The notes under the pieces are model-generated. The model searched no databases and was not told the origin of the DNA. It saw only the letters and a program-made list of their open reading frames with translations. From the NCBI GenBank assembly GCA_029860075.1, contig JAOUBX010000012.1, positions 3,654 to 67,653 on the forward strand: a DNA stretch of 64,000 nucleotides, given 5' to 3'. This DNA is from Deltaproteobacteria bacterium (GTDB taxonomy: Bacteria; Desulfobacterota; JADFVX01). Shown in pieces: positions 2,712 through 28,433 of the stretch. The translations under genes were made by a program, and so were the position numbers. The stretch's first letter is position 1. The number at the start of each line of letters is the position of its first letter.

Positions 2712-2999
2712 GTTGTATTCCTCCCTTTATGAGCTATAAATATTTTAGCCGCTTATTATTGTAAAGGCATAAGATAGCATAAAAATGTTTGAAGAAAAAG
2801 GATGTCATGGAAAAGATGTTGTTTTTTATGTGAAATAATGGTGATGATTGCACAATCTAAGAAAATGCCCTCCCCTCTCCCTGAGGGAGAGGGCTTATTT
2901 ATAGCTGCCTACAAAAACACAATAATCTTTAATCTTTTGTTAATCTGCTTTTTTGTATACTCATATCATAAAATAAGAAATAACTTAGGGAGGAAAACC

Positions 3000-3083
3000 A
3001 TGGAAACTATGATGATATTGACAAAGGTAATTGGATCTCTTTATACCATTGTTGTTGTATTGGCAATGATCGTTATGCTGTAA
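3000..3083 (+). CDS. 27-aa single-pass hydrophobic peptide (METMMILTKVIGSLYTIVVVLAMIVML), a candidate AcrZ-like efflux accessory peptide
   Basis: Strong RBS GGGAGG at 2988-2993, 6 nt before the ATG. The peptide is a single predicted TM helix. It lies directly upstream of, and co-directional with, the RND operon. It is too short to appear in the ORF track as its own entry. Confidence 0.35.
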   Translation: METMMILTKVIGSLYTIVVVLAMIVML

Positions 3084-3121
3084 AAGAATGGTACCGGACA
3101 ACAGGGTTGAAGCGGTTTTTT

Positions 3122-3152
3122 TTGCATTTATTAAAAAAGCTTGTGATATAAT
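3122..3152 (+). promoter_or_regulatory. Sigma70-like promoter for the RND efflux operon (TTGCAT, 19-nt spacer, extended -10 TGaTATAAT)
   Basis: -35 TTGCAT at 3122-3127. TG at 3144-3145 precedes TATAAT at 3147-3152. The element is about 35 nt upstream of the OMF start. Confidence 0.35.
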
Positions 3153-3187
3153 CCCTGCTTTAATCAAGGCCAGAATCAAGTCAATTT

Positions 3188-4609: not shown

Positions 4610-5833
4610 ATGAGTGATATAAAAATTAAAAGAAGATTAGCGGCAGCCGCCATAATCATCTCTATTACGGCAGCCCTTGTTTATGTTTTTTATGCCATGA
4701 AGCCTGCGACGAAAAAGAGGAGGCCCAAACCTGTCGTTCCCATTGTGGAAGTCCTTAATATTTCTCCCTCAACGGAAAGTGTATATATAGAGGCGGCAGG
4801 AGAGGTTATACCTGCAATGGAAGCAAATCTCTTTGCTGAAGTGGAGGGGAAGATTATCGATATAAGCAGTGAACTCGTTCCTGGCGGTATTGTAAAAAAA
4901 GGTGATAAGCTGGTGAGTATCGATAGGGCTGATTATATTCTTCGCGTGAAGGAGCTAAAAGCTGGGCTTGCCGAGGCTGAGTCGCAGCTGGAACTTGAAG
5001 AGGGACAGCAGGTGGTTGCCCGTGAGGAGTGGCGTCTTTTTGAAAAGGAGCATGCTGCAGCTCAGGCTGATAAAAGTCTTGCTCTAAGGGAACCCCATCT
5101 GAAAAGTGCAAAGGCCCGGCTCGATGCCGCCAGAAGCAGACTGGCTGCGGCTGAACTCGATTTAAAAAGGACGACGGTCGTTGCTCCCTTCAACGGAATT
5201 ATTTTGGAGGAATTTGCTGAAAAGGGCCAATACGTAGGAAGGCAGGGAAAAATTGCCACACTGGCCGGAACGGATTACTTCTGGGTACGTGTTTCGATCC
5301 CTCTCGGGTATGTTTCACGGATTGCCTTCCCGGATAAAAAGAATAAAAGCGGAGCAGAGGTAAAGGTCATTCTCGATACATCCAATGGCAAGAAAGTTAT
5401 CCGCAGCGGTAATGTTGAAAAATTACTGGGCGATCTTGATCTTAAAGGACGAATGGCGAGAATCCTCGTCAGGATAGATGATCCCCTTGCCCTTGGAGAC
5501 AAGGCGGGTGACGGCAGGATACTCATCGGCAGTTTTGTCAAACTTCAAATTGATGCCGGTAAACTGGAAAATATTTATGCCCTTCCCAGGGAAGTGGTAC
5601 ATGAAGGGGATCGTCTTTTTATTTTCAAAAAGGACAACACGCTAGATGTGCGGAAACTGGATATCCAGTGGCGTCGAAAAAATGAGCTTTTAGGCCTTGT
5701 CAAAATGGATGAAGGGGAACGTCTTATTGTAAGTCGTCTGCAGAATGCCCTTCCCGGGATGAAGTTGAGGGCTGCCGGGGATAAGGTAGTGGGGGATAAG
5801 GTGGGGAAGGCAGAGGGGAAAGGGAAGGAGTAG
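4610..5833 (+). CDS. Efflux RND transporter periplasmic adaptor (membrane fusion protein, HlyD/AcrA family)
   Basis: N-terminal TM anchor, a coiled-coil hairpin segment and a beta-barrel C-terminus. The start abuts the OMF stop, which suggests translational coupling. Confidence 0.8.
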   Translation: MSDIKIKRRLAAAAIIISITAALVYVFYAMKPATKKRRPKPVVPIVEVLNISPSTESVYIEAAGEVIPAMEANLFAEVEGKIIDISSELVPGGIVKKGDKLVSIDRADYILRVKELKAGLAEAESQLELEEGQQVVAREEWRLFEKEHAAAQADKSLALREPHLKSAKARLDAARSRLAAAELDLKRTTVVAPFNGIILEEFAEKGQYVGRQGKIATLAGTDYFWVRVSIPLGYVSRIAFPDKKNKSGAEVKVILDTSNGKKVIRSGNVEKLLGDLDLKGRMARILVRIDDPLALGDKAGDGRILIGSFVKLQIDAGKLENIYALPREVVHEGDRLFIFKKDNTLDVRKLDIQWRRKNELLGLVKMDEGERLIVSRLQNALPGMKLRAAGDKVVGDKVGKAEGKGKE

Positions 5834-13634: not shown

Positions 13635-13663
13635 TTGACACCCATTTTAGGAAGGTGTAAACT
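13635..13663 (+). promoter_or_regulatory. Sigma70-like promoter upstream of the V-ATPase operon (TTGACA, 17-nt spacer, TAAACT)
   Basis: Perfect -35 TTGACA at 13635-13640, a 17-nt spacer, and a -10-like TAAACT at 13658-13663. It is about 30 nt upstream of atpE. Confidence 0.35.
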
Positions 13664-13692: not shown

Positions 13693-14352
13693 GTGGAAAC
13701 TATGGCCGCACATTCGGATAATAATGAGGTGAGTCTCGGCAAGCTTATCAGCAGAATTAAAAGCGAAGGGATAGAGGAAGCTTCCAAAAAAGCGGAAGAT
13801 ATCATCACCGGGGCAAAAGCGGATGCCGCAAGGATTGTCGATGAAGCTGAAAGAAAGGCCCTTCATATCGTTACAAATGCCCGTAAAGAAGCTGAAGAGA
13901 GCAGTCAGCGAGGAATAGACTCACTCAAACTTGCCGCACGGGATAGCGCCATCGCCTTAAAACGATCTATTGAGGAAACCTTCCGCTCTGTTATTCTTAA
14001 GGACTGTAATGAAGCCCTTACCGGCGAGGCGCTTCAATCACTTATCGGAAAGATAGCAGAAGCATGGCACAAGGGAGATAAGGAGAGGGAAACCCTTGAG
14101 ATTATTATCAGTGAAAAAGACCGGAAGGGATTGTCGGACAGCTTTATAAAAAAACTCGGAAAAGCGCTTGAAAGGGGAGTAGAAGTAAAAGGCCGTTCCG
14201 GCATGAAGGGCGGTTTTCGCGCGGGACTGAAGGGGGGTCATATGTATTACGATTTCAGCGATGAGGCTGTTGCCGAACTGCTTTTAAACAATCTCTTTCC
14301 CGAACTTGCGGCCATTCTCGATGAAAGGGGCAAAAAGGAGGAAGATAAGTGA
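13693..14352 (+). CDS. atpE: V-type ATP synthase subunit E
   Basis: 219 aa. It is an Ala/Glu/Lys-rich long helical protein with the pattern typical of V/A-ATPase E (peripheral stalk). It is the first gene of the V-ATPase cluster. Confidence 0.7.
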   Translation: METMAAHSDNNEVSLGKLISRIKSEGIEEASKKAEDIITGAKADAARIVDEAERKALHIVTNARKEAEESSQRGIDSLKLAARDSAIALKRSIEETFRSVILKDCNEALTGEALQSLIGKIAEAWHKGDKERETLEIIISEKDRKGLSDSFIKKLGKALERGVEVKGRSGMKGGFRAGLKGGHMYYDFSDEAVAELLLNNLFPELAAILDERGKKEEDK

Positions 14353-14927
14353 AAAGCAGTTATTACTACTTTGTCGCTTCACTGCCCCACCTTTCTTTTT
14401 CTCAAACAAAGCCGATTTCCTATGAACATTTCCTCTCCCTTTGCGCTTCATTTCTTCATGCTAATGATTTTGACATTATAAAAAGCATTTCCCTTGCCGC
14501 CGCCGGAGGTAAGGCTGACTCTCTTGATTCCATGAAAAAATGGACGGCCTGGGACAGGGCGCTTCGATGGGAACTTGGACGCTTGAGGGCTGCCAAATTG
14601 GACCGTCAAATTGCGGCGCATGAGAATGCGGACAATAGTATTGCTTCCCATGCTGCAATGGTGGCAAAGGAGATTTTTGCCCTTTCCGCGCCCCTCGATG
14701 CCGATGAACAAATAGATAGAGCGAGATGGGAATATGTGGAACTTCTCGAATTTGGCCGTTACTTTGATATTGAGTGGCTCGCCCTTTATAGTCTCAAGCT
14801 TCACATACTGGAAAGGCGTGAGACCTTTGATCAAAAAGCAGGATTGCAGCGTCTTCATGCCATAATGGAGGGCGCGAGAAATAACTATGACGCAAAAGGA
14901 GACCCTGTGGAGGCAGATCTTGGCTAG
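14349..14927 (+). CDS. DUF2764-like protein of Bacteroidetes-type V-ATPase operons
   Basis: 192-aa ORF between atpE and atpA. Its start overlaps the atpE stop. Its position matches the conserved uncharacterised gene of 7-gene V-ATPase operons. This is recalled from memory, not verified. Confidence 0.45.
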   Translation: MKSSYYYFVASLPHLSFSQTKPISYEHFLSLCASFLHANDFDIIKSISLAAAGGKADSLDSMKKWTAWDRALRWELGRLRAAKLDRQIAAHENADNSIASHAAMVAKEIFALSAPLDADEQIDRARWEYVELLEFGRYFDIEWLALYSLKLHILERRETFDQKAGLQRLHAIMEGARNNYDAKGDPVEADLG

Positions 14928-16791
14928 GGTGGGATCTATTACAGGTGTTAACGGTAACATGGTTACCGTCAGGGTTGATGGCAGGGTCCGCCAGCATGAA
15001 GTTGCCCATGTTCATCTCGGTGAGAGGCGGCTAAAATCGGAAGTGGTGCGTATTCGGGGTGATATAGCCGATTTGCAGCTCTTTGAAAATTCACGGGGCC
15101 TCAGGGTGGGAGGAGGGGTTGAATTTACGGGAGAACTTCTCTCCGTCGAGCTTGGCCCCGGTTTGCTGGGCAGTGTATTTGACGGTCTCCAGACGCCGCT
15201 TAAGGTCATGGCCGGGAGTTTCGGCCACTTTCTTGAAGGGGGAGTAAGTATCCCGTCGCTTTCGAGGGATAGAAAATGGCAGTTTTCGCCTCTTGTCAAG
15301 ACAGGCGACAGCGTGGAAGCAGGCCATAGGATAGGCTTTGTCAGGGAGGGGAAGTTCGATCATCACATCATGGTCCCCTTTCATCGGGTTGGAACTTTTA
15401 CCGTCAGCGATATTGTTGAGTCCGGTGAGTACCTTATCGATGATAAAGTGGCATGCATCGAGGGAAATGATGGTGAAGAACATATTACCCTCTCTTTCCG
15501 GTGGCCCGTCAAGCGGCCCGTTACGGCCTATGAAGAGCGTCTTGCGGCAAAGGAAAATCTGCTTACCAGAATTCGCATTATCGATACTCTCTTTCCTGTG
15601 GGCAGGGGAGGGACTTACTGCATACCGGGGCCTTTCGGCGCCGGTAAAACGGTGCTCCAGCAGATCACCAGCCGCAATGCCATGGTAGACGTCGTCATCA
15701 TTGCCGCCTGCGGTGAGAGGGCCGGTGAGGTGGTGGAGACGATCCGCCACTTTCCCGAAATCAAGGACTCCTTTACAGGCCGGTACCTCATGGAGAGGAC
15801 CATCATCATCTGCAATACGAGCTCCATGCCTGTAGCGGCCAGGGAGTCTTCCGTCTATACGGCCGTTACCCTGGCCGAGTATTACCGTCAGATGGGGCTA
15901 AACGTGCTTCTTCTTGCCGATTCAACATCACGCTGGGCCCAGGCCATGCGTGAGCGTTCAGGCAGGCTGGAAGAGATTCCCGGTGAAGAGGCTTTTCCCG
16001 CCTATCTCGAATCGGTTATTGCCGATTTTTATGAACGGGCGGGAACAGTAAGGTTAAAAGACGGTTCCACAGGCTCCGTTACTATTGGCGGAACGATCAG
16101 TCCTTCGGGAGGCTTTTTTGAAGAACCTGTTACGCAGGCGACACTCAAGGTGGTGGGCGCCTTTCACGGATTATCGAGGGAACGCTCCGACGCCAGGCGT
16201 TATCCTGCCATCGAACCACTCCAGAGCTGGTCGCGCTACAGTGGGATCATCAGCGCTGAAGAGCGGGAATGGATACTTGCTTTTTTAAGAAAGGCCGATG
16301 AAATAGAGCAGATGATGAAGGTCGTCGGTGAAGAGGGAACCTCCCTCGATGATTACGTAATCTATATGAAAGGTGAACTTTTTGATGGCGTCTATTTGCA
16401 GCAGAATGCCTTTCATGAAATCGATTCGGCCACGCCGGAAGAGAGACAGGTTTATCTCTTTAACGTCGTTCGTGAAGTTATGGAAACGCCCTTTGCCGTT
16501 ACCCGCAAGGATGACGCAAAAAATATCTTTTTTTCGCTGAGGCAGCTTTTTCTCGATCTCAACTTTACCGTCTGGGATTCACCTGAATTTATGTCTCTCG
16601 AGGAAAAGATCATAACCCTTATTAATGAGAATAAGGGTGAGAGCGCGGCTGCGCCGGTTCCGCAAATAGAAGAGGCCTTTGTCGAAACGCGGGCAAATTC
16701 TAAACTGTGGCGAGGCAGGAGACTCAAGAGACTCCGTCAGGAAGAAGATGGCTTCAGGGAGAGCGATGAAGAAGATCTACAGCAGGATTAG
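14887..16791 (+). CDS. atpA: V-type ATP synthase catalytic subunit A
   Basis: Walker A GPFGAGKT. Conserved blocks include [21 protein letters not shown] and [10 protein letters not shown] better-supported alternative start is the TTG at 14920, which has GGAGG 6 nt upstream. The basic C-terminal tail overlaps the atpB start by about 26 nt. Confidence 0.9.
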
Positions 16792-18067
16792 CGATATTTC
16801 AGGGAATGTCGTTACCGTAAAGGCAGGTCATGTGGGTAACGGTGAACTGGCGCTCATATCATCGGCAGGGGGGAAATCTTTGGCCGAGGTAATACGTCTT
16901 CATGGGGAAAAAGTCTATCTCCAGGTATTCAGCGGCGGTAGCGGTATTTCGACAGATGACGAGGTACGCTTTCTGGGACGGCGTATGGAAGTGTCCTTTT
17001 CTGATAATCTTCTTGGCCGCATCTTTAACGGCCGGGGCGAGCCCCGTGACAAAGGACCAAAGCTTACTGAATCAATGACCGAAACGGGAGGCCCTGCCGT
17101 CAATCCCGCCGTCAGGGTCGTTCCATCGAAAATGATCGATACGGGCATTCCCATGATCGACCTTTTTAACTCCCTTGTCGAGTCGCAGAAAATCTCCATT
17201 TTTACCACAGCGGGAGAACCCTACAACGAACTTATGGCAAGAATTGCCGTTCAGTCCGGTGTCGATGTCATCATTCTCGGCGGAATGGGACTTCGATTCG
17301 ACGACTATGTATTCTTCAGGGATACTTTCAGGGAAAAGGGCCTGTTGCCGAGGTCGGTCCTTTTTATCCATACGGCCTCCGATCCCGTCGTGGAATGTAC
17401 CATGGTGGCCGACCTTTCTTTGGCCGTTGCCGAGAAATTTGCCCTTCAGGGGAAGCGGGCGCTTGTACTCTTAACGGACATGACCAACTTTTGCGACGCC
17501 CTCAAGGAAATCGCCATCACCATGGAGCAGGTCCCTTCCAACAGGGGCTATCCCGGTGATCTTTACAGCCAGCTCGCATCGAGGTATGAAAAGGCCGTTG
17601 ACTTTGAAGAGGCGGGTTCGGTAACGGTCCTGTCGGTAACGACTATGCCGGGAAATGACGTGACTCACCCCGTGCCGGATAATACGGGATATATTACGGA
17701 AGGGCAGTATTATCTCGACAAGGGATGGATTGAACCCTTCGGTTCACTGAGCCGGCTTAAACAGTTTGTTAACGGCAAGACACGGGAAGACCACCGGGCC
17801 CTCATGGACGGTATGATTCAGCTCTATGCAGACTACCGGGAAACGCTGGAAAAAAGGGCCATGGGTTTTAATATGACCCGGTGGGACAAAAAACTTTTAG
17901 CTTACGGAAAGCGCTTCGAAGAAGGGATGATGGATATTTCCTTAAACCTTTCTCTTCATGAGGCTTTAGACAGGGGCTGGCAAATGCTGGCCCATCATTT
18001 TACACCTGAAGAGACGGGATTAAGAACGGAGCTGATTAAGAAGTTCTGGCCTGAGGGAGTCAGTTAG
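16766..18067 (+). CDS. atpB: V-type ATP synthase subunit B
   Basis: The non-catalytic B-subunit pattern is present (no canonical P-loop) across a conserved nucleotide-binding fold. The start is set at MKKIYSRI after the GGGAGAG RBS. The longer ORF from 16679 is probably a 5' over-extension. Confidence 0.9.
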
Positions 18068-18177
18068 CAGTCTTCCTTTGCAATGATAAGGGGCTTGACC
18101 TTTTCTTTCCTTATCGCCATTATAAACGGGCCGGAAGTGAAGGGGGGCTGTCTTTTTAATAGAGCGTTTTTATTTTT

Positions 18178-19794
18178 TTGAGGTCAACATTGTATCAGAA
18201 TAAGGGTCGGGAAAATGCCGCAAAGTATAATTTTATCTTTATTTCCGGCTTATGCCTTCTTTTTTTTATAACAAGGTTCTATAAACTCCATGGGCTCCCC
18301 ATATTTACAGATGAGTCGACTTACATCCGCTGGGCACAAATCATTGCAGAAGAGCCATCGCAGTTTCTGCTTTCCTTGAACATAGATGGGAAACAGCCCC
18401 TTTTTCACTGGATTAATGCCCTCACAGTGAAGCTTTTTAATAATCCTCTTACATCGATCCGGGTTATCTCTGTTTTTTCAGGATTTTTGTCAGCCCTTGC
18501 CCTTTATCATATTGCGCGCCTGCTTCATTCCAATGGCGCCGGCATATTGGCCCTTGCCCTCTATATTTTTACACCATACATGCTGATACATGATCGCATA
18601 GGCATAGCGGCTTCACTGCTTTCCCTGTTTATAACTTACACATTGCTAATATGCGTTATAATAAGCCGCCGGGGTGAAGGGAGCGGGAAATGGTTTCTCT
18701 TGCTCGGTCTCTTTCTAACGGCTGCCTTTCTTACAAAGACAACAGCCCTGCTCTATTTTTTGCTCCTGCCTGCCGTTATTTTTATTCTCGGCGGTACAAG
18801 AGGGGTCAAAAATAATTTATATTACTTCATGATTACTTATCTTGTTGCCTTTCTCATTATTGCGGTTATCAATTTGGGGGGATCATCGCCCCATGAAAGA
18901 AACCCTCTCTTTTATCAAAAGAAGTACTTTTTAACTGCCCGGGACCTCCTTTCTTTTCCACTTCATCTTTGGTGGAAAAATGCCGCTGTGCTGGTTAATT
19001 ATCTCTACTCCTACCTGACGCCGTTCATATTTTGGGTCGTGGCTTTTTCCGTTTTTTTTGTCATTAAGTATAAAAAAAGAGACTATATTGCCCTTTTTCT
19101 CTGGTTTCTCTTTCCCCTAATGGTTTTAATGCTTATAGGGCAGATCCTCTTTTCGCGCTATATTGTTTTTGCCATCCCTTCCGCCCTGGTTATTGCATCC
19201 ATTTCGATGCTTTATCTGCGGGAAAAGTTATTTGTTATTTTCCATAAGTTTCCTTTCAGGGGCTTATGGGCAAATGGGGTGATATCATTGTTTTTTATTC
19301 CCATGCTCATACTTGATTATGGTGTTATTATGAATCCCGTCAAGGCTGCCTTTATCCCGCAGGATCACTTCCAGTATGTAAGCGGCTGGCCTTCCGGTTA
19401 TGGAATCAGTGAGGCCGCACAATACCTGAAGGAAAAAGCAAAAGAGCAGCCCATAACGCTTTTTTTAACGACTATGTGGGGACATCCCAATGATTCGCTC
19501 ATCATCAATTTGAGAAATGAGCGGAACATAAGAATTTACGAAGCACATTGGTGGTATAAGGCTCCCATCGTCCCCGGGAATGTTGGCTATGCCCAAATGG
19601 GAAAGTCGAAATATTTAAAAGTGGTTGAAGGTACCCTTGATTTTAGTGAATTGAAGGAAACCTATTTTGCTACTGATTCCGAGAAATCACCGGAGATGGA
19701 ATTTCTGGGACAAAATAGAAACTTTTATAAGGTTGCATCCTTTTTCAAGCCCGGGAAAAAATATTCCGTTGATATTTATAAACTCCGTAATTAG
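18178..19794 (+). CDS. GT-C family glycosyltransferase (ArnT/PMT-like, GT83/GT39), polyprenyl-phosphate-sugar dependent
   Basis: About 11 predicted TM helices. The DE motif lies in the first periplasmic loop (LPIFTDESTYIRWAQI), as in ArnT/PMT, and there is a C-terminal soluble domain. The start codon is non-ATG (TTG) and uncertain. Confidence 0.7.
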   Translation: MRSTLYQNKGRENAAKYNFIFISGLCLLFFITRFYKLHGLPIFTDESTYIRWAQIIAEEPSQFLLSLNIDGKQPLFHWINALTVKLFNNPLTSIRVISVFSGFLSALALYHIARLLHSNGAGILALALYIFTPYMLIHDRIGIAASLLSLFITYTLLICVIISRRGEGSGKWFLLLGLFLTAAFLTKTTALLYFLLLPAVIFILGGTRGVKNNLYYFMITYLVAFLIIAVINLGGSSPHERNPLFYQKKYFLTARDLLSFPLHLWWKNAAVLVNYLYSYLTPFIFWVVAFSVFFVIKYKKRDYIALFLWFLFPLMVLMLIGQILFSRYIVFAIPSALVIASISMLYLREKLFVIFHKFPFRGLWANGVISLFFIPMLILDYGVIMNPVKAAFIPQDHFQYVSGWPSGYGISEAAQYLKEKAKEQPITLFLTTMWGHPNDSLIINLRNERNIRIYEAHWWYKAPIVPGNVGYAQMGKSKYLKVVEGTLDFSELKETYFATDSEKSPEMEFLGQNRNFYKVASFFKPGKKYSVDIYKLRN

Positions 19795-19918
19795 TGTTCA
19801 AGCGAAAATAGGGTTACCCCTAAAGTTGAAGGCCTATGCCTCTGAGAAGGTGTCCCCGTTAAATTATCAGACAAAAACCATGCAGGAAAAGGGTAAAAAT
19901 GGAAGGAGCAGAAATTAA

Positions 19919-20677
19919 TTGTTAACCTCTTTTAATAATAACTGGACGCTGGTAATCCCCATGGCAAATGAGGAGAATGACTTTTACCCTTTCATCAATG
20001 AACTGGTTGCTGTCCTTGATTATATGAAAAGCGGCCATGCCTTTCTCGTCATAGATGAAGTTTCCAGGGATAATACGCTGGAACTATGCCGGAAGCTTGC
20101 CGGGGGTGATTCCCGTTTTACCGTCATATGGGCGCCGGAAAACAGGAACATAGTGGATGCCTATTTAAGAGGCTACAGGGAGGCCCTTCTTAATGGGTAT
20201 GACATAATTATTGAAATGGATGCAGGGCGCTCTCATGATCCAAGGGCGCTTCCCATGTTCTTGAGAGTTCTCAACGAAGGAAATGACTGCGCCTTCGGCA
20301 GCCGGTTCATTAACGGCGGTTCCATGGTCGATTCGCCTTTCAAAAGACGGCTGCTGTCATGGGGAGGAACTTTTCTCGCTAATATTTTACTTGGCACGAA
20401 AATGAATGACATGACCTCCGGCTACCAGGGTTTTCACGCTTCAATAGTAAAAGCTTTTATCGATTATCCCTTCAGGTCAAAGGCCCATTTTTACCAGACA
20501 GAACTGAGATATTTATTGAGAAGATCGAAATATATGGAAGTTCCCATTCATTACAAGGCCCCTTCACCACGTGTTTCCAGGCATGCTGTTAGAAATTCTT
20601 TTGCCGCCCTCTTTTACTATTTTGGGAAACGTTGTATCTTTCAAAGTGAATGGATAGAAGGGAGAAGGCAATCATGA
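19919..20677 (+). CDS. GT2 family glycosyltransferase, polyprenyl-phosphate sugar synthase-like (DPM1/ArnC/GtrB-like)
   Basis: N-terminal VIPMANEEN block. It has a DxD-like IIIEMDAGRSHDP block and a GSRF block typical of DPM1-like GT2 enzymes. Confidence 0.75.
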   Translation: MLTSFNNNWTLVIPMANEENDFYPFINELVAVLDYMKSGHAFLVIDEVSRDNTLELCRKLAGGDSRFTVIWAPENRNIVDAYLRGYREALLNGYDIIIEMDAGRSHDPRALPMFLRVLNEGNDCAFGSRFINGGSMVDSPFKRRLLSWGGTFLANILLGTKMNDMTSGYQGFHASIVKAFIDYPFRSKAHFYQTELRYLLRRSKYMEVPIHYKAPSPRVSRHAVRNSFAALFYYFGKRCIFQSEWIEGRRQS

Positions 20678-21690
20678 AGCTCCCCTCACTCATTATTACT
20701 TCCATTGCCGGTCCCCGTAACGGCATTCTTGTTCAATATGCCAAAGCGTGCGCAAAGCGGGGGGTCCCCTTTTTTCTTATTGGGGATGTTCCCTCTCCAC
20801 AAGACTTCACACTTGAGGGCTGCCGCTTTTACGGAATCGAAGATCAGCAGAAACTGGATTTTAGATGCCTTAAAAATCTTCCTCTCCGTCATTATGCCAG
20901 GAAAAATATTGGATACCTTCTTGCTATCAGGGAGGGGGCTCAAATTATTATTGAAACCGACGATGATAATGTGCCGGAAGAGGGTTTCTGGAATGAACGA
21001 AGTGAAGTCAATGAAGGTGCTTTCATTAAGGGGGCGGGCTGGGTAAATGCCTATTCCTACTTTACTGACGAGCAAATATGGCCCAGGGGCTATCCCCTGG
21101 ACCTTATAAAGAATACGGATTTCCCTTCACATATTCCACATGTTAAAGAAATAAAGTGCCCCGTTCAGCAAGGCCTGGCTAATGACAATCCCGATGTTGA
21201 TGCCATTTACAGGCTTGTTGCGCCTCTTCCCCTGCGTTTCAGAGACGAGGGGAACCTTATTCTTGGTGAGGGAAGCTGGTGTCCTTTCAATAGCCAGAAT
21301 ACGACCTGGTTTCCTCATGCCTTTCCGCTCCTTTATCTTCCTTCTTTTTGCAGTTTCAGAATGACTGATATCTGGAGAAGCTTTGTTGCCCAGAGAATCT
21401 GCTGGGCAAACGGCTGGGGCCTCCTTTTTCATGGTCCCACCGTTAGCCAGATCCGTAATGATCATGATTTGATGAAAGATTTTAACGATGAAATAGCGGG
21501 GTATTTGCATAACAGGGCAATTTGTGATTCTCTTGCCGCTTTGCCGCTTAAATCAGGGATTTCCGGGATTCCCGCAAATATGATGAAATGTTACGAGCAA
21601 CTGACAGTGCTTGGCCATATTGATGCAAAAGAACTGACGCTTCTTGAAGCATGGCTCAGGGACCTGGATGAGGTGACGCCGAAAAAATAA
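20674..21690 (+). CDS. Putative glycosyltransferase-like protein (possibly DUF288/STELLO family)
   Basis: The start overlaps the GT2 stop (ATGA). It has a Rossmann-like N-terminus (LIITSIAGP) and an acidic ETDDDN motif. The family assignment is tentative. Confidence 0.35.
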   Translation: MKLPSLIITSIAGPRNGILVQYAKACAKRGVPFFLIGDVPSPQDFTLEGCRFYGIEDQQKLDFRCLKNLPLRHYARKNIGYLLAIREGAQIIIETDDDNVPEEGFWNERSEVNEGAFIKGAGWVNAYSYFTDEQIWPRGYPLDLIKNTDFPSHIPHVKEIKCPVQQGLANDNPDVDAIYRLVAPLPLRFRDEGNLILGEGSWCPFNSQNTTWFPHAFPLLYLPSFCSFRMTDIWRSFVAQRICWANGWGLLFHGPTVSQIRNDHDLMKDFNDEIAGYLHNRAICDSLAALPLKSGISGIPANMMKCYEQLTVLGHIDAKELTLLEAWLRDLDEVTPKK

Positions 21691-21809
21691 GCCCGCTCCA
21701 TGCAGGGGGGCAAAAAATCGGTTAAAATATGAGTACGGGCACAGATTAAGACCGGACGATTGGCTTTGCTTGTTCATAGCCCGTCCTTGCGCGGAGACTT
21801 ACTGAAAGG

Positions 21810-22409
21810 ATGCAGAAAATTAAACTCACAAAACATGAACTCAAGCGTCATAAGGAGAATTTAAGGCGTTATAACCGCTTTCTCCCCACCCTCACGGCCA
21901 AAAAACAGCAGCTTCAGCGTGAGATTGTAAGAATCAGGGGGGAGATAAAGGGGCTGGAAAGTACCTTTAAAGAAGAAAGGGCAGGTATCATGCCCTGGGT
22001 TTCACTTCTCGCTGAAGATGTGGGTCTTGAAAAAATGGTGCGTTGCAAAGGGATCAGGCTGGGGGCGGATAATATTGCCGGTGTGGATATTCCCGGGTTT
22101 GAAGGTGTTGATCTTGCCGTGACTGACTATGATCTCCTGTCAACGCCCCTCTGGGTTGATTGGGCGATAGAAAAGCTGGGGAGACTCATGGTACTGGATG
22201 CCCGGATCGACGTGCTAAAAAAGCAGATAGCCCTTCTTGCGCAGGAGTTGCTTGTGACGACCCAGAGAGTCAACCTTTTCGAAAAGGTAAAAATTCCGGA
22301 GGCCATCGACGCCATCAGAAGAATAGCGATTCATCTTGGCGACCAGCAGACGGCGGCTGTTGTCTGGGCCAAAATGGCGAAGAAAAAATTGCAGGTACAG
22401 GGCATATGA
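21810..22409 (+). CDS. atpD: V-type ATP synthase subunit D
   Basis: 199-aa coiled-coil protein with the conserved N-terminal pattern of V/A-type D (central rotor stalk). Confidence 0.8.
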   Translation: MQKIKLTKHELKRHKENLRRYNRFLPTLTAKKQQLQREIVRIRGEIKGLESTFKEERAGIMPWVSLLAEDVGLEKMVRCKGIRLGADNIAGVDIPGFEGVDLAVTDYDLLSTPLWVDWAIEKLGRLMVLDARIDVLKKQIALLAQELLVTTQRVNLFEKVKIPEAIDAIRRIAIHLGDQQTAAVVWAKMAKKKLQVQGI

Positions 22410-24262
22410 TTGTTGCCATGAAAAAAATAACCTTTCTCATGAGGCCGCGCTGGTCTTATGAAGCGACTGCCCTTCTCAGGGAGGCAGGCGCGCTGCATTT
22501 AAGTTGCCCCCTTACTCCCGCAAGCGAGCATATTGCAACCATTGAAAATAAAATGAAAACCCTTGAAAAGGCGATAGCTATTCTCCAAAAGGCGGGGGCA
22601 GGGGAAGGGGAAGGGGAAGGGGAAGGGAGAAAGAGTTTTACCATCGAAGAAGCGCAAGTCCTGACGGGACGGATTATTGACCTTGATGAAGCGGCCTGTG
22701 AAGTGGCGAGGGATTTGGAGAAACTTGAAAGTGAATACGAGAGGGTTGTCCGCTGGGGGGATTTCAATCACGCTGACATAGAGGCCCTTGAAAAGGCCGG
22801 CATCGATGTGACGCTTTTTTCATGCCCTCAAGAGGCCCTTGAAAAGTTGCCGGCCGGCTTAAACGGGCATGTTATCAATCGGATCGGCGGCAGGTGCTTT
22901 GTGGTGGTTTTCTCTAAAGGTGAAAGACCGCAAATTCCTTTCAGTAAGGTAGAGGCGCCTCATCGTTCTTTCAAAGAGATAGGGCAATTGATTGATGAAA
23001 ATAAGGAGAGACTTTTAGCTGTTAATGAAGCGTTGAAGGGACTTGCAGGCGCATTGCCGCTATTGATGGAAATATTGGAGGCTTTTAGGGATAAGCTTGA
23101 ATTTGAGAAGGTGCGCCGGGGAATGGGGGAAGAGGACGGCATTGCCTATGTTAAAGGTTTTGTCCCCGCTTGCCGTCTTGAAGTGTTGAAAAAACTGGCC
23201 TCCCAAGAGCGTTGGGGCATTGTTGTCGAGGAACCGGGAGAGGAAGATGATGTGCCCACACTTATCAGGCATTCCAGGTTATCGGCGCTTTTTCAGCCGG
23301 TCATGTCTTTTATGGGCATAACACCGGGCTACTTTGAGTATGATACCAATGCCGTCTTCCTTATCTTCTTTTCCCTCTTTTTTGCCATGATTGTCGGTGA
23401 TGCAGGTTATGGTCTGTTACTGCTTGTTGCCACCTTTGCGCTTCAGCGCTTTAACGCGTCTTTCTCCGGTCATTTGCAGAAGCTTTCTTATCTCCTTTCC
23501 CTGTCGACACTGGTTTGGGGCGCTGTAACGGGTAACTGGTTCGGTGTATCAGGGGCGGCATTGCCTTTGCTTGAAGGCCTGATTATACCGGGCCTTGATT
23601 CCTTCCATGCCGCCGCCGACTCTGTAGTGATGGAATTATGTTTCTTTATCGCCCTCCTCCATCTCTCCGTTGCACATATCTGGAAGGCCCTCCTCTCCTA
23701 TCCCTCTCTAAGGGTATGGGGTGAAAGCGGATGGGTGATCATGCTGACAGGCATTTATTTTCTTGTGAAAGGGCTCATACTCAAAAGTGCTTCTCTTCCC
23801 ATGTCCATGATTTTCGTATTGTCAGGCTTTGCCATGATCATTCTTTTCGGCATGCAGGGACGGGGCGGTTTTTTAAAGGGAACCCTGAAGGGCCTGAAAT
23901 CACTTCCCCTGACGGCCCTTGACGGTGTGGGCGGGCTATCCAATATAGTTTCCTACTTAAGGCTTTTCGCCGTAGGGATGGCGTCGAAAGAGGTGGCGGC
24001 GGCTTTTAACGCAATGGCGCTTGAGAGGGGTTTTCATGATGTAATATCTATCTTCATTGCTGCGCTCATTCTTATTTTCGGTCACGGAGTCAATATGCTT
24101 TTAATTGCCATGTCCGTTATTGTTCACGGTATAAGATTAAATATCCTCGAATATTCGGGACATATGAATATAGAATGGTCGGGCATTCCTTATAAACCCT
24201 TTGGTCGTTCCCCGAAAGAGAAGGAGCAGGAATTGCTTTCGAAAGCGTTAATGGAGGTGTGA
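22406..24262 (+). CDS. atpI: V-type ATP synthase subunit I (a-subunit)
   Basis: The start (MIVAMKKITFL) overlaps the atpD stop (ATGA). It has a soluble N-terminal ~330 aa and a C-terminal multi-TM domain. It contains an in-frame (GGGGAA)4 repeat encoding EGEGEGEG. Confidence 0.8.
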   Translation: MIVAMKKITFLMRPRWSYEATALLREAGALHLSCPLTPASEHIATIENKMKTLEKAIAILQKAGAGEGEGEGEGRKSFTIEEAQVLTGRIIDLDEAACEVARDLEKLESEYERVVRWGDFNHADIEALEKAGIDVTLFSCPQEALEKLPAGLNGHVINRIGGRCFVVVFSKGERPQIPFSKVEAPHRSFKEIGQLIDENKERLLAVNEALKGLAGALPLLMEILEAFRDKLEFEKVRRGMGEEDGIAYVKGFVPACRLEVLKKLASQERWGIVVEEPGEEDDVPTLIRHSRLSALFQPVMSFMGITPGYFEYDTNAVFLIFFSLFFAMIVGDAGYGLLLLVATFALQRFNASFSGHLQKLSYLLSLSTLVWGAVTGNWFGVSGAALPLLEGLIIPGLDSFHAAADSVVMELCFFIALLHLSVAHIWKALLSYPSLRVWGESGWVIMLTGIYFLVKGLILKSASLPMSMIFVLSGFAMIILFGMQGRGGFLKGTLKGLKSLPLTALDGVGGLSNIVSYLRLFAVGMASKEVAAAFNAMALERGFHDVISIFIAALILIFGHGVNMLLIAMSVIVHGIRLNILEYSGHMNIEWSGIPYKPFGRSPKEKEQELLSKALMEV

Positions 24263-24263
24263 T

Positions 24264-24704
24264 GTGAATATTGTCGATATATTAGGTGATACCGGTTTTG
24301 TTATGGCCCTTTGTCTTCCGGCGCTGGGCTCTGTCCTCGGCACAAGCGCGGCAGGAATGGCGGCACTTGGTGCATGGAAAAAGTGCTTCCTTGCAAACAG
24401 GACGGCCCCATTCATCATGGTTGCTTTTGCCGGAGCGCCTCTTTCGCAAACCATTTACGGCATGATCCTTATGAATGCCCTTATGGGCGCCGGGGGGACG
24501 GCAGCAGATGTCAAGTTCAGTGCAGGCCTCTTTGGTGGTCTTGCCATGGGAGCTTCAGCCTGGTTACAGGGTAAGGCCGGGGCACTTGCTTCCGATGCGC
24601 TGTCCGAATCGGAAAAAGGGTTCGGAAACTACATCATGGTTATCGGTATTATTGAGACAGTGGCCCTCTTCGTTATGGTATTTCTCATGACGGCCCTTAA
24701 GTAG
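24264..24704 (+). CDS. atpK: V-type ATP synthase subunit K (proteolipid c-subunit)
   Basis: GTG start one nt after the atpI stop. It has Gly/Ala-rich TM hairpins with the conserved ion-binding Glu (GIIETVALF). Confidence 0.8.
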   Translation: MNIVDILGDTGFVMALCLPALGSVLGTSAAGMAALGAWKKCFLANRTAPFIMVAFAGAPLSQTIYGMILMNALMGAGGTAADVKFSAGLFGGLAMGASAWLQGKAGALASDALSESEKGFGNYIMVIGIIETVALFVMVFLMTALK

Positions 24705-24887: not shown

Positions 24888-25255
24888 AGAACGCATATTC
24901 AAAGATGCTCTAAAAAGCCGCAGGAAGCGCCTAAAGGCTCGAAAAATCCGGGCCATACCGGCAGCTTGCAGGGGCGCTTGTGCTGTAAACCATGAACTGC
25001 CGCCGCTTCCAGCTTCAACTGAGGTTGTGTGGCGAGATTATGGGCGGGTCTTTGTCCTGATGGCAGTCTTTTTTCACTCGCTTCCCCTCTCCCGGAATGT
25101 CCTTCCGAAAAATTAAGAGGCTTTTTCCGGCTTCCAATCTCCCGGATAATGAAAGAATATGTCAAAAAAAAGGGGTAGACTGGAAGGGAATAAAGTTATA
25201 ATATATGAAGGTTTTACTGTCTTGTTACTATCACTGTTTGAATAAAGGAAATGCT

Positions 25256-25852
25256 ATGTCAAATAAATGTCTATCTTCCGGCGGACCCGGCGCTTTAGCC
25301 GTCCTTTTCTCCCTTCTTATGTTTATCTCCCCGGTCATCGCTGCTGCTGCGCCAGCCCAAAAGGTGAAAAAGGAGCTTAAGGCCGGCTCTTCAGTTCCTG
25401 CGTCTGCCGGAAATGCAAGAAAAGGGATTGAACCTCTCAGGAAGTTATCTGCCATTGAGGTTTTCAGGAACAAAAAGCTGCTTGAAAAAACGATCAAGGA
25501 CCTCGATGCATACAGGGTAATGCTCAAGTACCTTGTCAGTGAACATCATGAGGACAGTCAGCGTCTTTTGCTGCTTGAAGAGACGGATAATTACATTGAT
25601 AAAAATGTCGATCCTTTAATAGAAGATAATCTTAATTATAATGATGAAACCTTTAACCTTGTCGTTACCTTGAGGTTTTATAAGGCCTATGCTTATTTTG
25701 AAGCAGAGAAGTACGACAAGTATCAGGAAATATTGACGGATATGAAACGGGTCCACGGCACGGAATTTTTGAGTATAGCCATAAGGCCCTTTGGAGAGAA
25801 ATATAAAACCATTGGTGATGCTGTAAAAAATTTAAGAGGGATGATTCTTTAG
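25256..25852 (+). CDS. Hypothetical secreted protein
   Basis: Signal peptide when the start is taken at MSNKCLSS (RBS AAGGAAA). No recognisable domain. Confidence 0.4.
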   Translation: MSNKCLSSGGPGALAVLFSLLMFISPVIAAAAPAQKVKKELKAGSSVPASAGNARKGIEPLRKLSAIEVFRNKKLLEKTIKDLDAYRVMLKYLVSEHHEDSQRLLLLEETDNYIDKNVDPLIEDNLNYNDETFNLVVTLRFYKAYAYFEAEKYDKYQEILTDMKRVHGTEFLSIAIRPFGEKYKTIGDAVKNLRGMIL

Positions 25853-25863
25853 AGGTATAAAAA

Positions 25864-26553
25864 ATGGAATTTAGTTATCGATTTTTTCACGCATTTAATT
25901 CATCTGAGTCAGGGTATGTTTTTATGTGGATACTGCTTTTAAGCGGTATTGTTGCCATGGCTATTGTTATTGAAAGGTTGGCCTTTCTCACCTTAAAGTC
26001 AGGGAAAAGGAGCGCTTCACAATTAGATAATGTGATTTCCGTGGTGGCCGGCGGCGATATGAAAGGCGGTCTTGCCCTTTGCGCCGGGGCAAGTAAAAAA
26101 GCTGTTTTCCAGGTCCTGGAAAATGTGCTGGCAAGCTCTCCGTCAGGAAGTGATCAGGTGCAGAATGTGGTTGATGAATCGATGCTAAAAGTCATTCCTC
26201 ACCTTGAAAAGAGAACGACTTTCCTGGCGACGATAGGTAATATTGCAACCTTGATCGGCCTTATGGGAACCATTTACGGCCTTATTCTTTCTTTTTCCGC
26301 CGTAGGTAAGCCCGGTATCGATGCCGTAGAAAAATCGACACTGCTTGCGTCGGGAATTGCCGCGGCCATGAGCACCACTTTTATGGGCCTGCTTGTCGCC
26401 ATCCCGTCAATCGGCATGTATGCTTATTTGAAATCCAAAACCCAGATGATAGTTGATGAAATTGATCTTTATACGCTGAAGCTTTCCAATGCCCTGCTCA
26501 TAAGCCAGGAAAAAAGAGTTGAAAAAAATTATGACGATTCAAGCCGGGTTTAA
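25864..26553 (+). CDS. MotA/TolQ/ExbB proton-channel family protein
   Basis: 229 aa with three TM helices. It has the conserved TM2/TM3 block (GLMGTIYGLILSF ... LLASGIAAAMSTTFMGL). Confidence 0.8.
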   Translation: MEFSYRFFHAFNSSESGYVFMWILLLSGIVAMAIVIERLAFLTLKSGKRSASQLDNVISVVAGGDMKGGLALCAGASKKAVFQVLENVLASSPSGSDQVQNVVDESMLKVIPHLEKRTTFLATIGNIATLIGLMGTIYGLILSFSAVGKPGIDAVEKSTLLASGIAAAMSTTFMGLLVAIPSIGMYAYLKSKTQMIVDEIDLYTLKLSNALLISQEKRVEKNYDDSSRV

Positions 26554-26616
26554 TCCTTTGCAGGGGAAAGGCCCGCCAATAGCATACCGCTAATCTGACC
26601 TTCGGAAAAATATGAA

Positions 26617-27936
26617 ATGTATTTTATTAATGAACTGCTAAGTGGATTTAAACCGGGGCAGGAGAGCTTTGTCTTTATGTGGGGCCTCGCTCTTGTTGCT
26701 TTTATTGCCGTAGTGATTAATGTTGAGAGATGGTTGAGGATCAAGAAGCTGACCGACGTTAATGCCCTGGCCTTTATTGATGAAGTTTGTCATCTTATTG
26801 ATGAACAAAAGCATGATCAGGCTCTCAAAATTTGTGACCTGGGCGGAGAGAGAGCGCTTGCAGGAATTGCAGGCGCCGCTATCAGACAGTCCCTTCGCTT
26901 TCCTCACCTTGTCAAAAGCGCTATGGAAGAGGAGTTCCTTAAGGTTATTCCCTCTATGGACCGCAGGTTAAACCTCATCTTTGTTATCAGCAACCTCTCT
27001 ACCATGATAGGGCTTATGGGTACCATATGGGGGCTAATTATCGCTTTTTCAGCGATTAGCAATCCCGGTGTTGCAGCCGTTGAAAAAAGCTCTCTCCTTG
27101 CGGCCGGTGTGTCGACAGCCATGAACACAACCCTCGTTGGCCTTACCATCAGTATCCCCTGTCTTCTTTCTTTCTTTATCTTCAGAAACTGGGTTGACAG
27201 AAAAACAGTTGAGCTTGATCGTTATGCTCTTCATCTTTTACGCGTACTTTCTCCCGGAGTAACGGCCGTAAAGAATTATAAGTTTTCCAGCAAAAGAATC
27301 AGTGAGGATATCGATCATGAACCGAATATCGGTCCCATGATGAGCCTCATTGTCATTCTTATTCCCCTTCTTCTTTCTTCTGCCGAATTTGTCAAGGTGG
27401 GCGCCATAGAGCTTCATGTTCCGGACAATAAAAAACAGGAACAGCCCAAGACTGAAGAGAAAGATGAAAAGGAGAGCATCTATCTCGGTCTTAAGCTGAA
27501 GATAGGGAAAGAGGGATTTTATCTTTCACACTATTTCAAGGATGAAGGGGCCGTTAATGAAGGGGGAGATGGCAGTGAACATTCCCTTCCCGATATTCCC
27601 ATGGCGGACGGCAGGTATGATTTTAAGGTTCTTCAGAAAAAGCTCGCTGAAATTAAAAGGTTGACTCTCCTGTCTCTTGCCGCGGTGGAATATGATGTCG
27701 ATGAAGATGCGCCCCTCGATGAGTCATATGTTCTTTTTGCAAAGGTTGCCGGCAGTGAAAGCCTGAAAGGTTTTCTTGAGGACCGGGACCAGGTAAAAAT
27801 ATCGGCTGAAAAGGATGTCCCTTACCAGACAATTATTTCTGTTATGGATTCGGCGCGGGAAGTTCAGGCGAAAAGCGGAAAAATACCGCTCTTTCCATCC
27901 ATATCATTTGCAGGGAGTGTGACACCAGGGCAATGA
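26617..27936 (+). CDS. MotA/TolQ/ExbB-family protein with a C-terminal ExbD/TolR-like extension (fusion)
   Basis: Residues 1-200 form an ExbB-like three-TM core (GLMGTIWGLIIAF, LLAAGVSTAMNTTLVGL). Residues ~235-439 resemble ExbD: a TM segment EPNIGPMMSLIVILIPLLL, in which the usually conserved Asp is replaced by Ser, and a C-terminal periplasmic block DVPYQTIISVMDSARE. Confidence 0.65.
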   Translation: MYFINELLSGFKPGQESFVFMWGLALVAFIAVVINVERWLRIKKLTDVNALAFIDEVCHLIDEQKHDQALKICDLGGERALAGIAGAAIRQSLRFPHLVKSAMEEEFLKVIPSMDRRLNLIFVISNLSTMIGLMGTIWGLIIAFSAISNPGVAAVEKSSLLAAGVSTAMNTTLVGLTISIPCLLSFFIFRNWVDRKTVELDRYALHLLRVLSPGVTAVKNYKFSSKRISEDIDHEPNIGPMMSLIVILIPLLLSSAEFVKVGAIELHVPDNKKQEQPKTEEKDEKESIYLGLKLKIGKEGFYLSHYFKDEGAVNEGGDGSEHSLPDIPMADGRYDFKVLQKKLAEIKRLTLLSLAAVEYDVDEDAPLDESYVLFAKVAGSESLKGFLEDRDQVKISAEKDVPYQTIISVMDSAREVQAKSGKIPLFPSISFAGSVTPGQ

Positions 27937-28433
27937 AACGCGGACGCAGAAGAAAAATGGGGTCTCAGGGGGACCACAATGCAAAATTGAACATTACATC
28001 CATGATGGATATATTTATTATTATTCTTGTCTTTTTGCTTAAAGTTTTTTCAACTCAGGGCCAGCTCGTAACGCCGGCTGCCGGCCTTACCTTGCCCACA
28101 TCAACCATAGAAAGTCCGGCCAGGGAGTCTTTGTCCGTCAAGATCCTGGCAGACAAGATACTGGTTGAGGATGAGGTGGTTCTTAATAGTGTGGATTATG
28201 AAAAAACGGTAAAAGATGAATCAAAGGGTCTCATCAAATCATTATACAATACGCTGGTTCTTCATGCCAAAGAGGCTAAAGCGGTATCTGAAAAAGTAGA
28301 AAGCAGCTTTTCAGGTGAGATAACTATTCATGGTGATAAGGGTATCCCTTATAATCTGCTGACTCGCGTTATGTATACGTGCACAAAAGCAGGCTACCCT
28401 GTTATGAAGCTCCTTGTTTACAGGGAGGAATAA
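27933..28433 (+). CDS. Biopolymer transporter ExbD/TolR family
   Basis: Single TM segment with the conserved Asp (ITSMMDIFIIILVFLL). The periplasmic domain has an ExbD-like C-terminal block. The start overlaps the preceding stop. Confidence 0.75.
   Translation: MKRGRRRKMGSQGDHNAKLNITSMMDIFIIILVFLLKVFSTQGQLVTPAAGLTLPTSTIESPARESLSVKILADKILVEDEVVLNSVDYEKTVKDESKGLIKSLYNTLVLHAKEAKAVSEKVESSFSGEITIHGDKGIPYNLLTRVMYTCTKAGYPVMKLLVYREE

Follow-up and report, generated by a model that had tools for sequence, protein, structure and literature searches.

A predicted lipid-linked glycosylation cassette lying between atpB and atpD of a seven-gene V-type ATPase operon

The stretch of DNA analyzed here, called the window throughout, comprises 64,000 nucleotides (nt) from a Deltaproteobacteria bacterium (assembly GCA_029860075.1, contig JAOUBX010000012.1, positions 3,654 to 67,653; Desulfobacterota, JADFVX01 in the GTDB lineage) and carries a V-type ATPase operon in which the subunit genes atpB and atpD are parted by three others. 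The map of its open reading frames (ORFs) runs E-DUF2764-A-B, then a gene for a GT-C-type membrane glycosyltransferase, one for a GT2 glycosyltransferase and a DUF288/STELLO-like gene (gene 3 in what follows), then D-I-K, all on the forward strand, with atpB ending at 18067 and atpD starting at 21810, which leaves 3742 nt and three sugar-handling envelope genes in between. The explanation that we regard as reasonably probable is that these genes constitute a passenger envelope-glycosylation pathway at the atpB|atpD junction, co-expressed with atpD-I-K merely through its position and not on account of any action on the ATPase. The presence of three co-directional genes inside this operon had been claimed in an initial annotation made from the DNA letters, and the coordinates, as well as the Pfam and NCBIfam assignments, agree with it.

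The seven ATPase subunit genes stand in canonical order on one strand and each is recognized via Pfam or NCBIfam; the contiguity of atpB and atpD expected of a seven-gene operon is not found in the window. In a scan with AtpB, for which one genome per GTDB species was taken and which returned 80 loci, atpD follows directly after atpB in 77, the gap lying between -16 and 492 nt, with a median of 20 nt. Of the other three loci, two lie on contigs that end before the junction can be read, and one (L001, AtpB identity 85%) differs in that atpB is followed by a small helix-turn-helix (HTH)-like ORF and a YD-repeat fragment. The three-gene cassette occurs in none of the 80. The separation of atpB and atpD is a true departure from the norm and a lineage-specific insertion: as compared with the bacterial seven-gene V/A-type operon of Bacteroidota, Spirochaetota and Chlamydiota type, the window has the same seven genes in the same order and differs by the 3.7-kb, three-gene glycosylation block that parts B from D. 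Non-ATPase genes inside V-type ATPase operons have precedent, since the Enterococcus hirae ntp operon includes ntpJ; of glycosyltransferases in such operons no description was found in the literature, as the initial annotation had supposed.

Inserts at another junction were noticed in two Marinimicrobia/Neomarinimicrobiota-like loci (L061:13712-16122 and L047:7658-9413), where 1.7-2.4 kb lie between atpI and atpK. The insert of L061 contains a duplicated 5' fragment of atpK (a 107-residue ORF) and a 335-residue ORF that is RhuM/Fic-like by eye only, and both inserts look like mobile DNA.

The first gene of the cassette (18190..19794, forward strand; from 18178 in the ORF list) encodes an ArnT-like GT-C membrane glycosyltransferase of 534 residues, which matches Pfam PMT_2 at 55.0 bits against a curated cut-off of 26.1 (E 1.5e-14). 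Its AlphaFold2 (AF2) model, with a predicted local distance difference test value (pLDDT) of 89.3 and a predicted template-modeling score (pTM) of 0.91, consists of long helices to about residue 381 followed by an alpha/beta domain. The best PDB match to this model in Foldseek is ArnT (5EZM; E 3.5e-9, template-modeling (TM) score 0.61, full-length superposition), and the next are STT3, AglB, ALG9/12, Pmt4 and PglB; these relatives came from the fold search, the sequence search against the PDB having given no match, and no NCBIfam equivalog was matched either. An acidic pair, D41-E42 (FTDES), which does not vary among 62 homologues, lies in the first loop, between model helices 2-30 and 40-54. 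By profile, fold and acidic motif, the protein belongs to the ArnT/PMT-like class (Pfam PMT_2; CAZy GT83/GT39-like).

The second gene (19919..20677, forward strand) encodes a GT2 protein resembling dolichyl-phosphate mannose synthase (DPMS) and ArnC, presumed to be a polyprenyl-phosphate sugar synthase and possessing a variant DAG motif. It matches Pfam Glycos_transf_2 at 56.5 bits (cut-off 23.3), and its best PDB matches by sequence are the DPMS of P. furiosus (5mlz, E 1.5e-17) and then three ArnC structures. The NCBIfam equivalogs are not reached, be it PgfS (44 versus 500 bits), the Dol-P hexose transferase (32 versus 375) or ArnC (27 versus 529). Unlike ArnC, GtrB and the P. furiosus DPMS, the window GT2, with 252 residues and a DPMS match that ends at about residue 211, appears too short to have C-terminal membrane helices.

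Gene 3 (20674..21690, forward strand; from 20650 in the ORF list) was assigned by phmmer, Foldseek and Pfam as a GT75-like protein, homologous to MtdL and UAM. Its Pfam match is to STELLO/DUF288 (38.1 bits, cut-off 27.8), with residues 229-334 (in the numbering of the 338-residue form) aligned to positions 1-105 of the 387 in the profile, and in phmmer it matches MtdL at E 1e-24. The AF2 model (pLDDT 90.0) has the GT75 fold with its GT-A, core and helical domains, and in Foldseek it matches MtdL (E 3e-23, TM 0.76-0.79) and rice UAM2 (E 1e-14, TM 0.67), with the next match dropping to a TM of 0.42. MtdL and UAM are members of GT75 and act as Mn-dependent mutases that interconvert the pyranose and furanose forms of nucleoside diphosphate (NDP) sugars, and the mutase activity of MtdL is abolished by mutating D87, D109, R159, D195, Q229, R257 or D260 (PMC9937993). 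Gene 3 keeps, in MtdL numbering, the DDD motif, the nucleophilic Arg159, Asp195, Ser228-Gln229, Arg257, Asp260, Arg289 and His292, all of them invariant in 120 homologues, while S86, D87 and R90 of MtdL are His, Tyr and Lys in our own mapping of the phmmer alignment. Judging from sequence and model, the most fitting description of gene 3 is that of a GT75 protein homologous to MtdL and UAM, and hence to NDP-pyranose/furanose mutases, and not that of a third transferase. It shares with MtdL/Hyg20 and the plant UAM/RGP proteins the fold and most catalytic residues, and differs from them in being paired with GT2 and GT-C genes, not placed in an antibiotic cluster, and in its Pfam class, which is STELLO/DUF288.

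Of the identities proposed for these genes in the initial annotation, the first two, namely an ArnT/PMT-like GT-C with a DE motif and a DPM1/ArnC-like GT2, are borne out by the profile, fold and motif matches given above. All three proteins score above the curated Pfam cut-offs for PMT_2, Glycos_transf_2 and STELLO, respectively; for gene 3, the tight coupling to the GT2 gene through an ATGA overlap and the STELLO match stand, whereas the label of glycosyltransferase gives way to that of a protein closer to the GT75 mutases.

The family of gene 3 is large, with at least 7,948 matching proteins, the top matches being 55-61% identical and some of them named Acidobacteriota or Bacteroidota by NCBI. 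In all three loci that were read (L133:4693-8975, L136:6229-8011 and L138:2974-8020) a GT2 gene lies directly upstream of the STELLO-like gene. A Pyrinomonadaceae (Acidobacteriota) locus has the order GT87 (a GT-C), GT2, STELLO-like, epimerase; a Bacteroidota locus has GT2, STELLO-like, AsmA; and the locus of a third genome has PMT_2, PMT_2, GT2, STELLO-like. No ATPase genes are near the pair in these three loci. The GT2 of the window shares 62% identity with its counterpart in the Bacteroidota locus and 44% and 46% with the other two. As read from these gene contexts, the GT2/GT75-like pair is a conserved cross-phyla unit that commonly sits beside GT-C genes and is independent of V-type ATPases.

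The GT-C of the window has a far narrower distribution, with only two close relatives (71% and 61% identity) among 5.8 billion proteins and the next matches at about 32%. The locus with the 71% relative (L081) has exactly the same ten-gene layout, with ATPase subunits 60-90% identical to those of the window, and two short contigs from other samples match that layout as far as they reach, L092 covering E-DUF2764-A-B and the start of the GT-C gene and L086 covering the GT-C gene and the start of the GT2 gene. In L082, which has the 61% relative, the GT-C gene lies immediately 5' of atpD-I-K without the GT2 gene or gene 3. Further loci (L139/L140, L141 and L142) were added through a search with AtpD and reading of the gene contexts. 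In L139/L140 (AtpD 79%, AtpB 88% identity), atpA-atpB is followed by a PMT_2 gene that runs in the opposite direction, an AT-rich gap of 610 nt in which blastn found no similarity to the cassette, and then atpD-I-K (in L139, atpB at 1287-2591, PMT_2 at 2657-4294 on the minus strand and atpD at 4905-5504). The encoded GT-C has 545 residues, a FDETRY motif and a Pfam PMT_2 match of 1.3e-10; it has no BLAST similarity to the window GT-C, an hhalign comparison with the window family returned a probability of 75% at an identity of 19%, and by these comparisons it is a non-orthologue. GCA_032250935.1, which is the next-closest genome, has its V-type ATPase operon split at B|D over two contigs, one (L001:11380-12427) with E-DUF2764-A-B followed by the HTH-like ORF and YD/RHS-repeat fragment, and the other (L141:375-11056) with atpD-I-K, which a TetR and RND-efflux cluster and a 149-residue ORF precede. 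L142 (AtpD 65%) has the canonical layout with atpD right after atpB.

In a distance tree of D, I and K together, the window, L081, L082 and L139 form a near-star at 69-72% identity, with L141 at 57-60% and L142 at 55%. These four lineages are close relatives that also share wider synteny, including a 215-codon ORF (orf215) and ExbB/ExbD genes, and because of this a common gene position among them is expected by descent. The comparison of atpB-atpD junctions in related genomes, which the initial annotation had proposed, finds the cassette absent from the 80 scanned loci, present in full layout in L081, reduced to the GT-C gene in L082 and replaced by a non-orthologous, inverted PMT_2 gene in L139.

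Outside these lineages, two distant homologues of the GT-C (P0004 and P0005, 30-32% identity) have no ATPase genes nearby, and among homologues at about 30% identity in a metagenome scan none has ATPase genes on the loci fetched, many having a GT2 gene directly upstream. Two GT-C genes near V-type ATPase genes were encountered among the 80 loci: in an Omnitrophota metagenome-assembled genome (L026:7512-9404), a PMT_2 GT-C (Pfam 2.1e-13) begins 75 nt 3' of atpK on the same strand and runs off the contig, and at L058:1023-2615 another lies about 3.8 kb upstream of atpE. The count of two GT-C genes within 10 kb in 80 loci comes from the narrow profile of the window family and is too small for an enrichment test.

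The composition and substitution rates of the cassette resemble those of its surroundings. The GC contents of the three genes are 0.414, 0.445 and 0.464 (window mean 0.450, standard deviation 0.035), and at third codon positions (GC3) they are 0.453, 0.470 and 0.458 (window mean 0.466, standard deviation 0.045); no compositional anomaly relative to the window is present. Between the window and L081, the number of synonymous substitutions per site (dS) is 1.28-1.40 for the cassette genes and 0.99-1.27 for atpA, atpB, atpD and atpK, values near saturation at which equality is only approximate. The ratio of nonsynonymous to synonymous rates (dN/dS) is 0.15 for the GT-C, 0.07 for the GT2 and 0.13 for gene 3, as compared with 0.12 for atpD and 0.11 for atpI. 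No integrase, transposase, target duplication or convincing terminal repeats were seen at the cassette. A 28-nt inverted repeat (18159-18186 and 21674-21701) that brackets it almost exactly was judged a chance occurrence; it is 75% complementary, sets a T-run against an A-run, is partly coding and, in a by-eye comparison, is seemingly not kept in L081. Because GC and GC3 are at the window means, dS is like that of the ATPase genes and dN/dS is 0.07-0.15, the insertion is, on this reading of the sequences, not a recent foreign one: it is old and fully ameliorated, was inherited vertically with the ATPase genes and is under purifying selection.

With regard to expression, the spacers are 110 nt between atpB and the GT-C gene (122 nt from the likelier GT-C start), 124 nt between the GT-C and GT2 genes and 119 nt between gene 3 and atpD. 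The GT-C start at TTG 18190 is preferred to 18178 because its context, TTTTTGAGGnCAnCATTG, is kept in three lineages. The part of the GT2 N-terminus that is encoded 5' of ATG 19961 is conserved in its protein sequence and is preceded by a ribosome-binding site, AAGGAG, which is conserved as well. For gene 3 the likelier start is ATG 20674, which overlaps the end of the GT2 gene by 4 nt (ATGA); 120 homologues start at the matching position, and an exact-sequence database look-up with the 346-residue version gave no match, databases carrying the 338-residue start. A scan of the forward strand for consensus terminators found no terminator-like site at either junction of the cassette, in agreement with what the initial annotation had noted. 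The promoter scan found a site resembling the main operon promoter 5' of atpE (TTGACA-N17-TAAACT, 13635..13663, forward strand), which is almost identical in L081 and L092, as is the leader in L081, the sequence further upstream having diverged. It also found an internal sigma-70-like promoter in the spacer between atpB and the GT-C gene (CTTGACC-N17-CATTAT, 18095..18123, forward strand). Of this block, GGGnCTTGACC...CATTAT, both hexamers and the 17-nt spacing are identical in L081 and L092, the remaining spacer having indels, and among 142 loci it is present only in those of window type and L081 type. No conserved promoter or other element was found before atpD, where the spacer (119 nt here, 48 nt in L081, 83 nt in L082) cannot be aligned. 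Because of the conserved promoter-like element, the three cassette genes and atpD-I-K probably form their own transcription unit beside any read-through, which qualifies the co-transcription with the ATPase operon proposed in the initial annotation: the lack of a terminator allows for it, and the internal site makes a separate unit with D-I-K probable. An internal promoter also fits L139 and L141, because atpD-I-K there must be transcribed apart from atpA-B.

In the model that we favor, the arrangement would go back to the common ancestor of a small uncultured lineage, where three genes came to lie between atpB and atpD of a seven-gene V/A-type ATPase operon, and the cassette would have become fixed at what is, in this clade, a fragile junction. 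The cytoplasmic GT75-like enzyme would convert an NDP-pyranose to the NDP-furanose, and the translationally coupled GT2 would load that furanose sugar onto polyprenyl phosphate, following which, after flipping, the ArnT-like GT-C would transfer the sugar to a lipid or protein acceptor beyond the cytoplasmic membrane. The internal sigma-70-like promoter, together with read-through from the atpE promoter, would give the GT-C, GT2, GT75-like, atpD, atpI and atpK genes as one transcript. In this model the activities of the enzymes, the nature of the sugar and of its acceptor, and the transcripts are what we infer, to be set beside the identities, folds, motifs, synteny, composition and substitution rates observed above.

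It has to be noted that several observations weigh against this model. The GT2 lacks the canonical DXD motif, having EMDAGRSHDP where DPMS has VMDADLQHPP, and its EMDAGxSH(D/Q)P is invariant in five subfamily members from different phyla. In gene 3 the position of the Mn ligand His287 of MtdL is occupied by Gln, as it is in 120 of 120 homologues, so that both members of the pair have atypical metal motifs family-wide, with DAG in place of DXD in the one and Gln in place of the Mn-binding His in the other. His287 is lost, together with Arg257, in the inactive AtRGP5 (PMC9937993). Because a residue lost in this inactive protein is Gln here, mutase activity of gene 3 is plausible from its sequence and not assured, and given both substitutions the proposed chemistry may be wrong in detail. 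The near-saturation of dS, for its part, leaves the agreement between cassette and ATPase genes an approximate one. A GT-C-type gene is found at the B|D junction in four of four sister lineages, one of them with a non-orthologous gene, and the searches turned up orthologues of the window GT-C with more than 32% identity in this ATPase context only; a GT-C that persists at the junction in this way is odd, sitting ill with a purely neutral passenger.

The substituted metal ligands also bear on an alternative that we regard as unlikely, though the least so of the three considered here, in which gene 3 would encode a true glycosyltransferase, or else a primer that glycosylates itself, and the cassette would make a lipid- or protein-linked pyranose glycan by another route. 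Consistent with this, the Pfam match is to STELLO, and GT75 proteins also autoglycosylate an arginine (PMC9937993); the loss of His287, which accompanies inactivity in AtRGP5, is seen family-wide, and the metal motif of the partner GT2 is atypical as well. Against this, the matches in sequence (E 1e-24) and in fold (TM 0.76-0.79) are to the two solved GT75 mutases and fall off sharply toward ordinary GT-A transferases. Moreover, those residues mapped as abolishing MtdL activity upon mutation, D109, R159, D195, Q229, R257 and D260, are invariant in 120 homologues; D87, the mutation of which also abolished activity, is Tyr in the window protein according to our own mapping. The match to the STELLO model spans 106 residues only.

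Functional coupling of the cassette to the ATPase was the other possibility raised in the initial annotation. In such a model the GT-C, with or without the GT2 and GT75-like proteins, would have as its target the membrane sector of the ATPase, the lipid around it or a partner in the periplasm, and selection would keep the GT-C gene by atpD-I-K. This is consistent with a PMT_2-type GT-C at B|D in all four sister lineages, including that of L139, which is of another subfamily and in opposite orientation, with the retention in L082 of the GT-C alone, immediately 5' of atpD, with the Omnitrophota PMT_2 gene that follows atpK by 75 nt on the same strand, and with the want of close orthologues of the window-type GT-C outside this context. 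The four lineages are, however, closely related and share wider synteny (orf215, ExbB/ExbD), such that the position is expected by descent, and the inverted GT-C gene of L139 cannot be co-transcribed with D-I-K. AtpD, AtpI and AtpK, checked for clade-specific loops or insertions as possible glycosylation targets, have none; 77 of the 80 other operons are without an inserted gene, and a GT-C is detectable within 10 kb in just 2 of these 80 loci, a count obtained with the narrow profile of the window family. With the GT2/gene 3 pair widespread without ATPase genes, the cassette genes lost, replaced or inverted in sister lineages and the three subunits featureless, the claim found no support, and we consider coupling in this general form quite improbable. 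Slightly less probable still is the narrower proposition of a functional tie between the GT-C and the membrane sector of the V-type ATPase, perhaps through glycosylation of subunit I or K, of the lipid around them or of a partner in the periplasm. Such a tie would explain why four lineages have a PMT_2-type GT-C at atpB|atpD, that of one lineage being non-orthologous and inverted, as well as the GT-C after atpK in the unrelated Omnitrophota operon, and it would be the first known glycosylation link to a bacterial rotary ATPase; no precedent for glycosylated bacterial V-type ATPase subunits is known.

That a foreign or mobile glycosylation cassette was inserted recently by horizontal transfer is very improbable and largely refuted: the absence of the cassette from nearly all related operons, the apparent mobile DNA between atpI and atpK in L047 and L061 and the imperfect 28-nt inverted repeat would favor it, but GC and GC3 do not stand out from the remainder of the window, dS is equal to that of the ATPase genes on either side as far as values near saturation allow, the layout is common to L081 with ATPase subunits only 60-90% identical, neither integrase, transposase nor target duplication is present, and the repeat is of low complexity, partly coding and apparently not in L081 (by eye). 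The foreign insertion suggested in the initial annotation holds in the sense of an old, lineage-specific rearrangement, with GC, GC3, dS and the layout shared with L081 speaking against a recent origin.

As for the ATPase genes themselves, all on the forward strand, subunit E (13693..14352, the likelier start being ATG 13702 as in the gene call of L083) matches NCBIfam PRK01558 at E 5.8e-48, which is under the equivalog cut-off, and is followed by the DUF2764 protein of the bacterial seven-gene operon (14349..14927; Pfam DUF2764 39.6 bits, cut-off 24.1). Subunits A (14887..16791; NF003220, 725 bits, cut-off 470) and B (16679..18067; NF002555, 708 bits, cut-off 431) come next, gene callers placing the start of B at 16748, as in L083. 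Beyond the cassette lie subunits D (21810..22409; NF002565, 217.5 bits, cut-off 189), I (22406..24262 according to the gene call in L083, the longest ORF beginning at 22160; NF004429, E 2.4e-129) and K (24264..24704; NF005174, 175.9 bits, cut-off 127). The overlap of atpA and atpB (window 16679-16791) amounts to 44 nt with the start at 16748 and up to 113 nt with that at 16679, and encodes a charged C-terminal tail of AtpA. The cytoplasmic N-terminal domain of subunit I includes, at about 22630-22670, a short repeat of the form (Gly-Glu)n, AGAGEGEGEGEG, at a position where the segment of its relatives is shorter and non-repetitive. On the 3' side of atpK (window 25205-28433) there is the secreted-looking orf215 product of 215 residues, which has no Pfam match and is 72-77% identical across three sister lineages, and then a cluster of ExbB, an ExbB-ExbD fusion and ExbD; orf215 and the ExbB/ExbD genes are conserved downstream of atpK in the four sister lineages only.

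Among known systems, the cassette is most readily likened to ArnC/ArnT, as also to Ppm1/Pmt and GtrB/Gtr, in which a GT2 that loads polyprenyl phosphate is paired with a GT-C acting at the outer face, as is predicted here. ArnC is an undecaprenyl-phosphate-L-Ara4N synthase, and the acceptor is lipid A in the case of ArnT and Ser/Thr in that of PMT. It differs in that the window proteins reach no NCBIfam equivalog for ArnT, ArnC, PgfS or GtrB, and in that its donor-forming step appears to add a GT75 mutase to what is found with ArnC/ArnT. The mycobacterial EmbA/B/C and AftA-D enzymes share the concept of a lipid-linked furanose donor for an extracytoplasmic GT-C and are weaker fold matches of the window GT-C, with no relationship at the sequence level. 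Mycobacterial decaprenyl-phosphate-arabinofuranose is made from phosphoribosyl pyrophosphate via DprE1/E2, and not by an NDP-sugar mutase and a GT2. In the literature on bacterial DUF288/STELLO proteins, or on GT75 proteins with polyprenyl carriers, no relevant description was found, and no paper on the GT2/GT75-like pair came up.

What is new here is the way in which enzymes of known kinds are arranged within one narrow lineage, and the novelty is modest. As a curiosity of operon structure it carries little weight, a tightly conserved ATPase operon being seen to tolerate over a long time a 3.7-kb passenger and, with it, an internal promoter. If the chemistry proposed for the pair is correct, many bacterial phyla would make lipid-linked furanose donors by a route of which we found no description. 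The more useful by-product is that a very large, strongly conserved bacterial family now carried as 'STELLO/DUF288' appears, from the model and alignments of gene 3, to have the GT75 mutase fold and nearly all of its catalytic residues.

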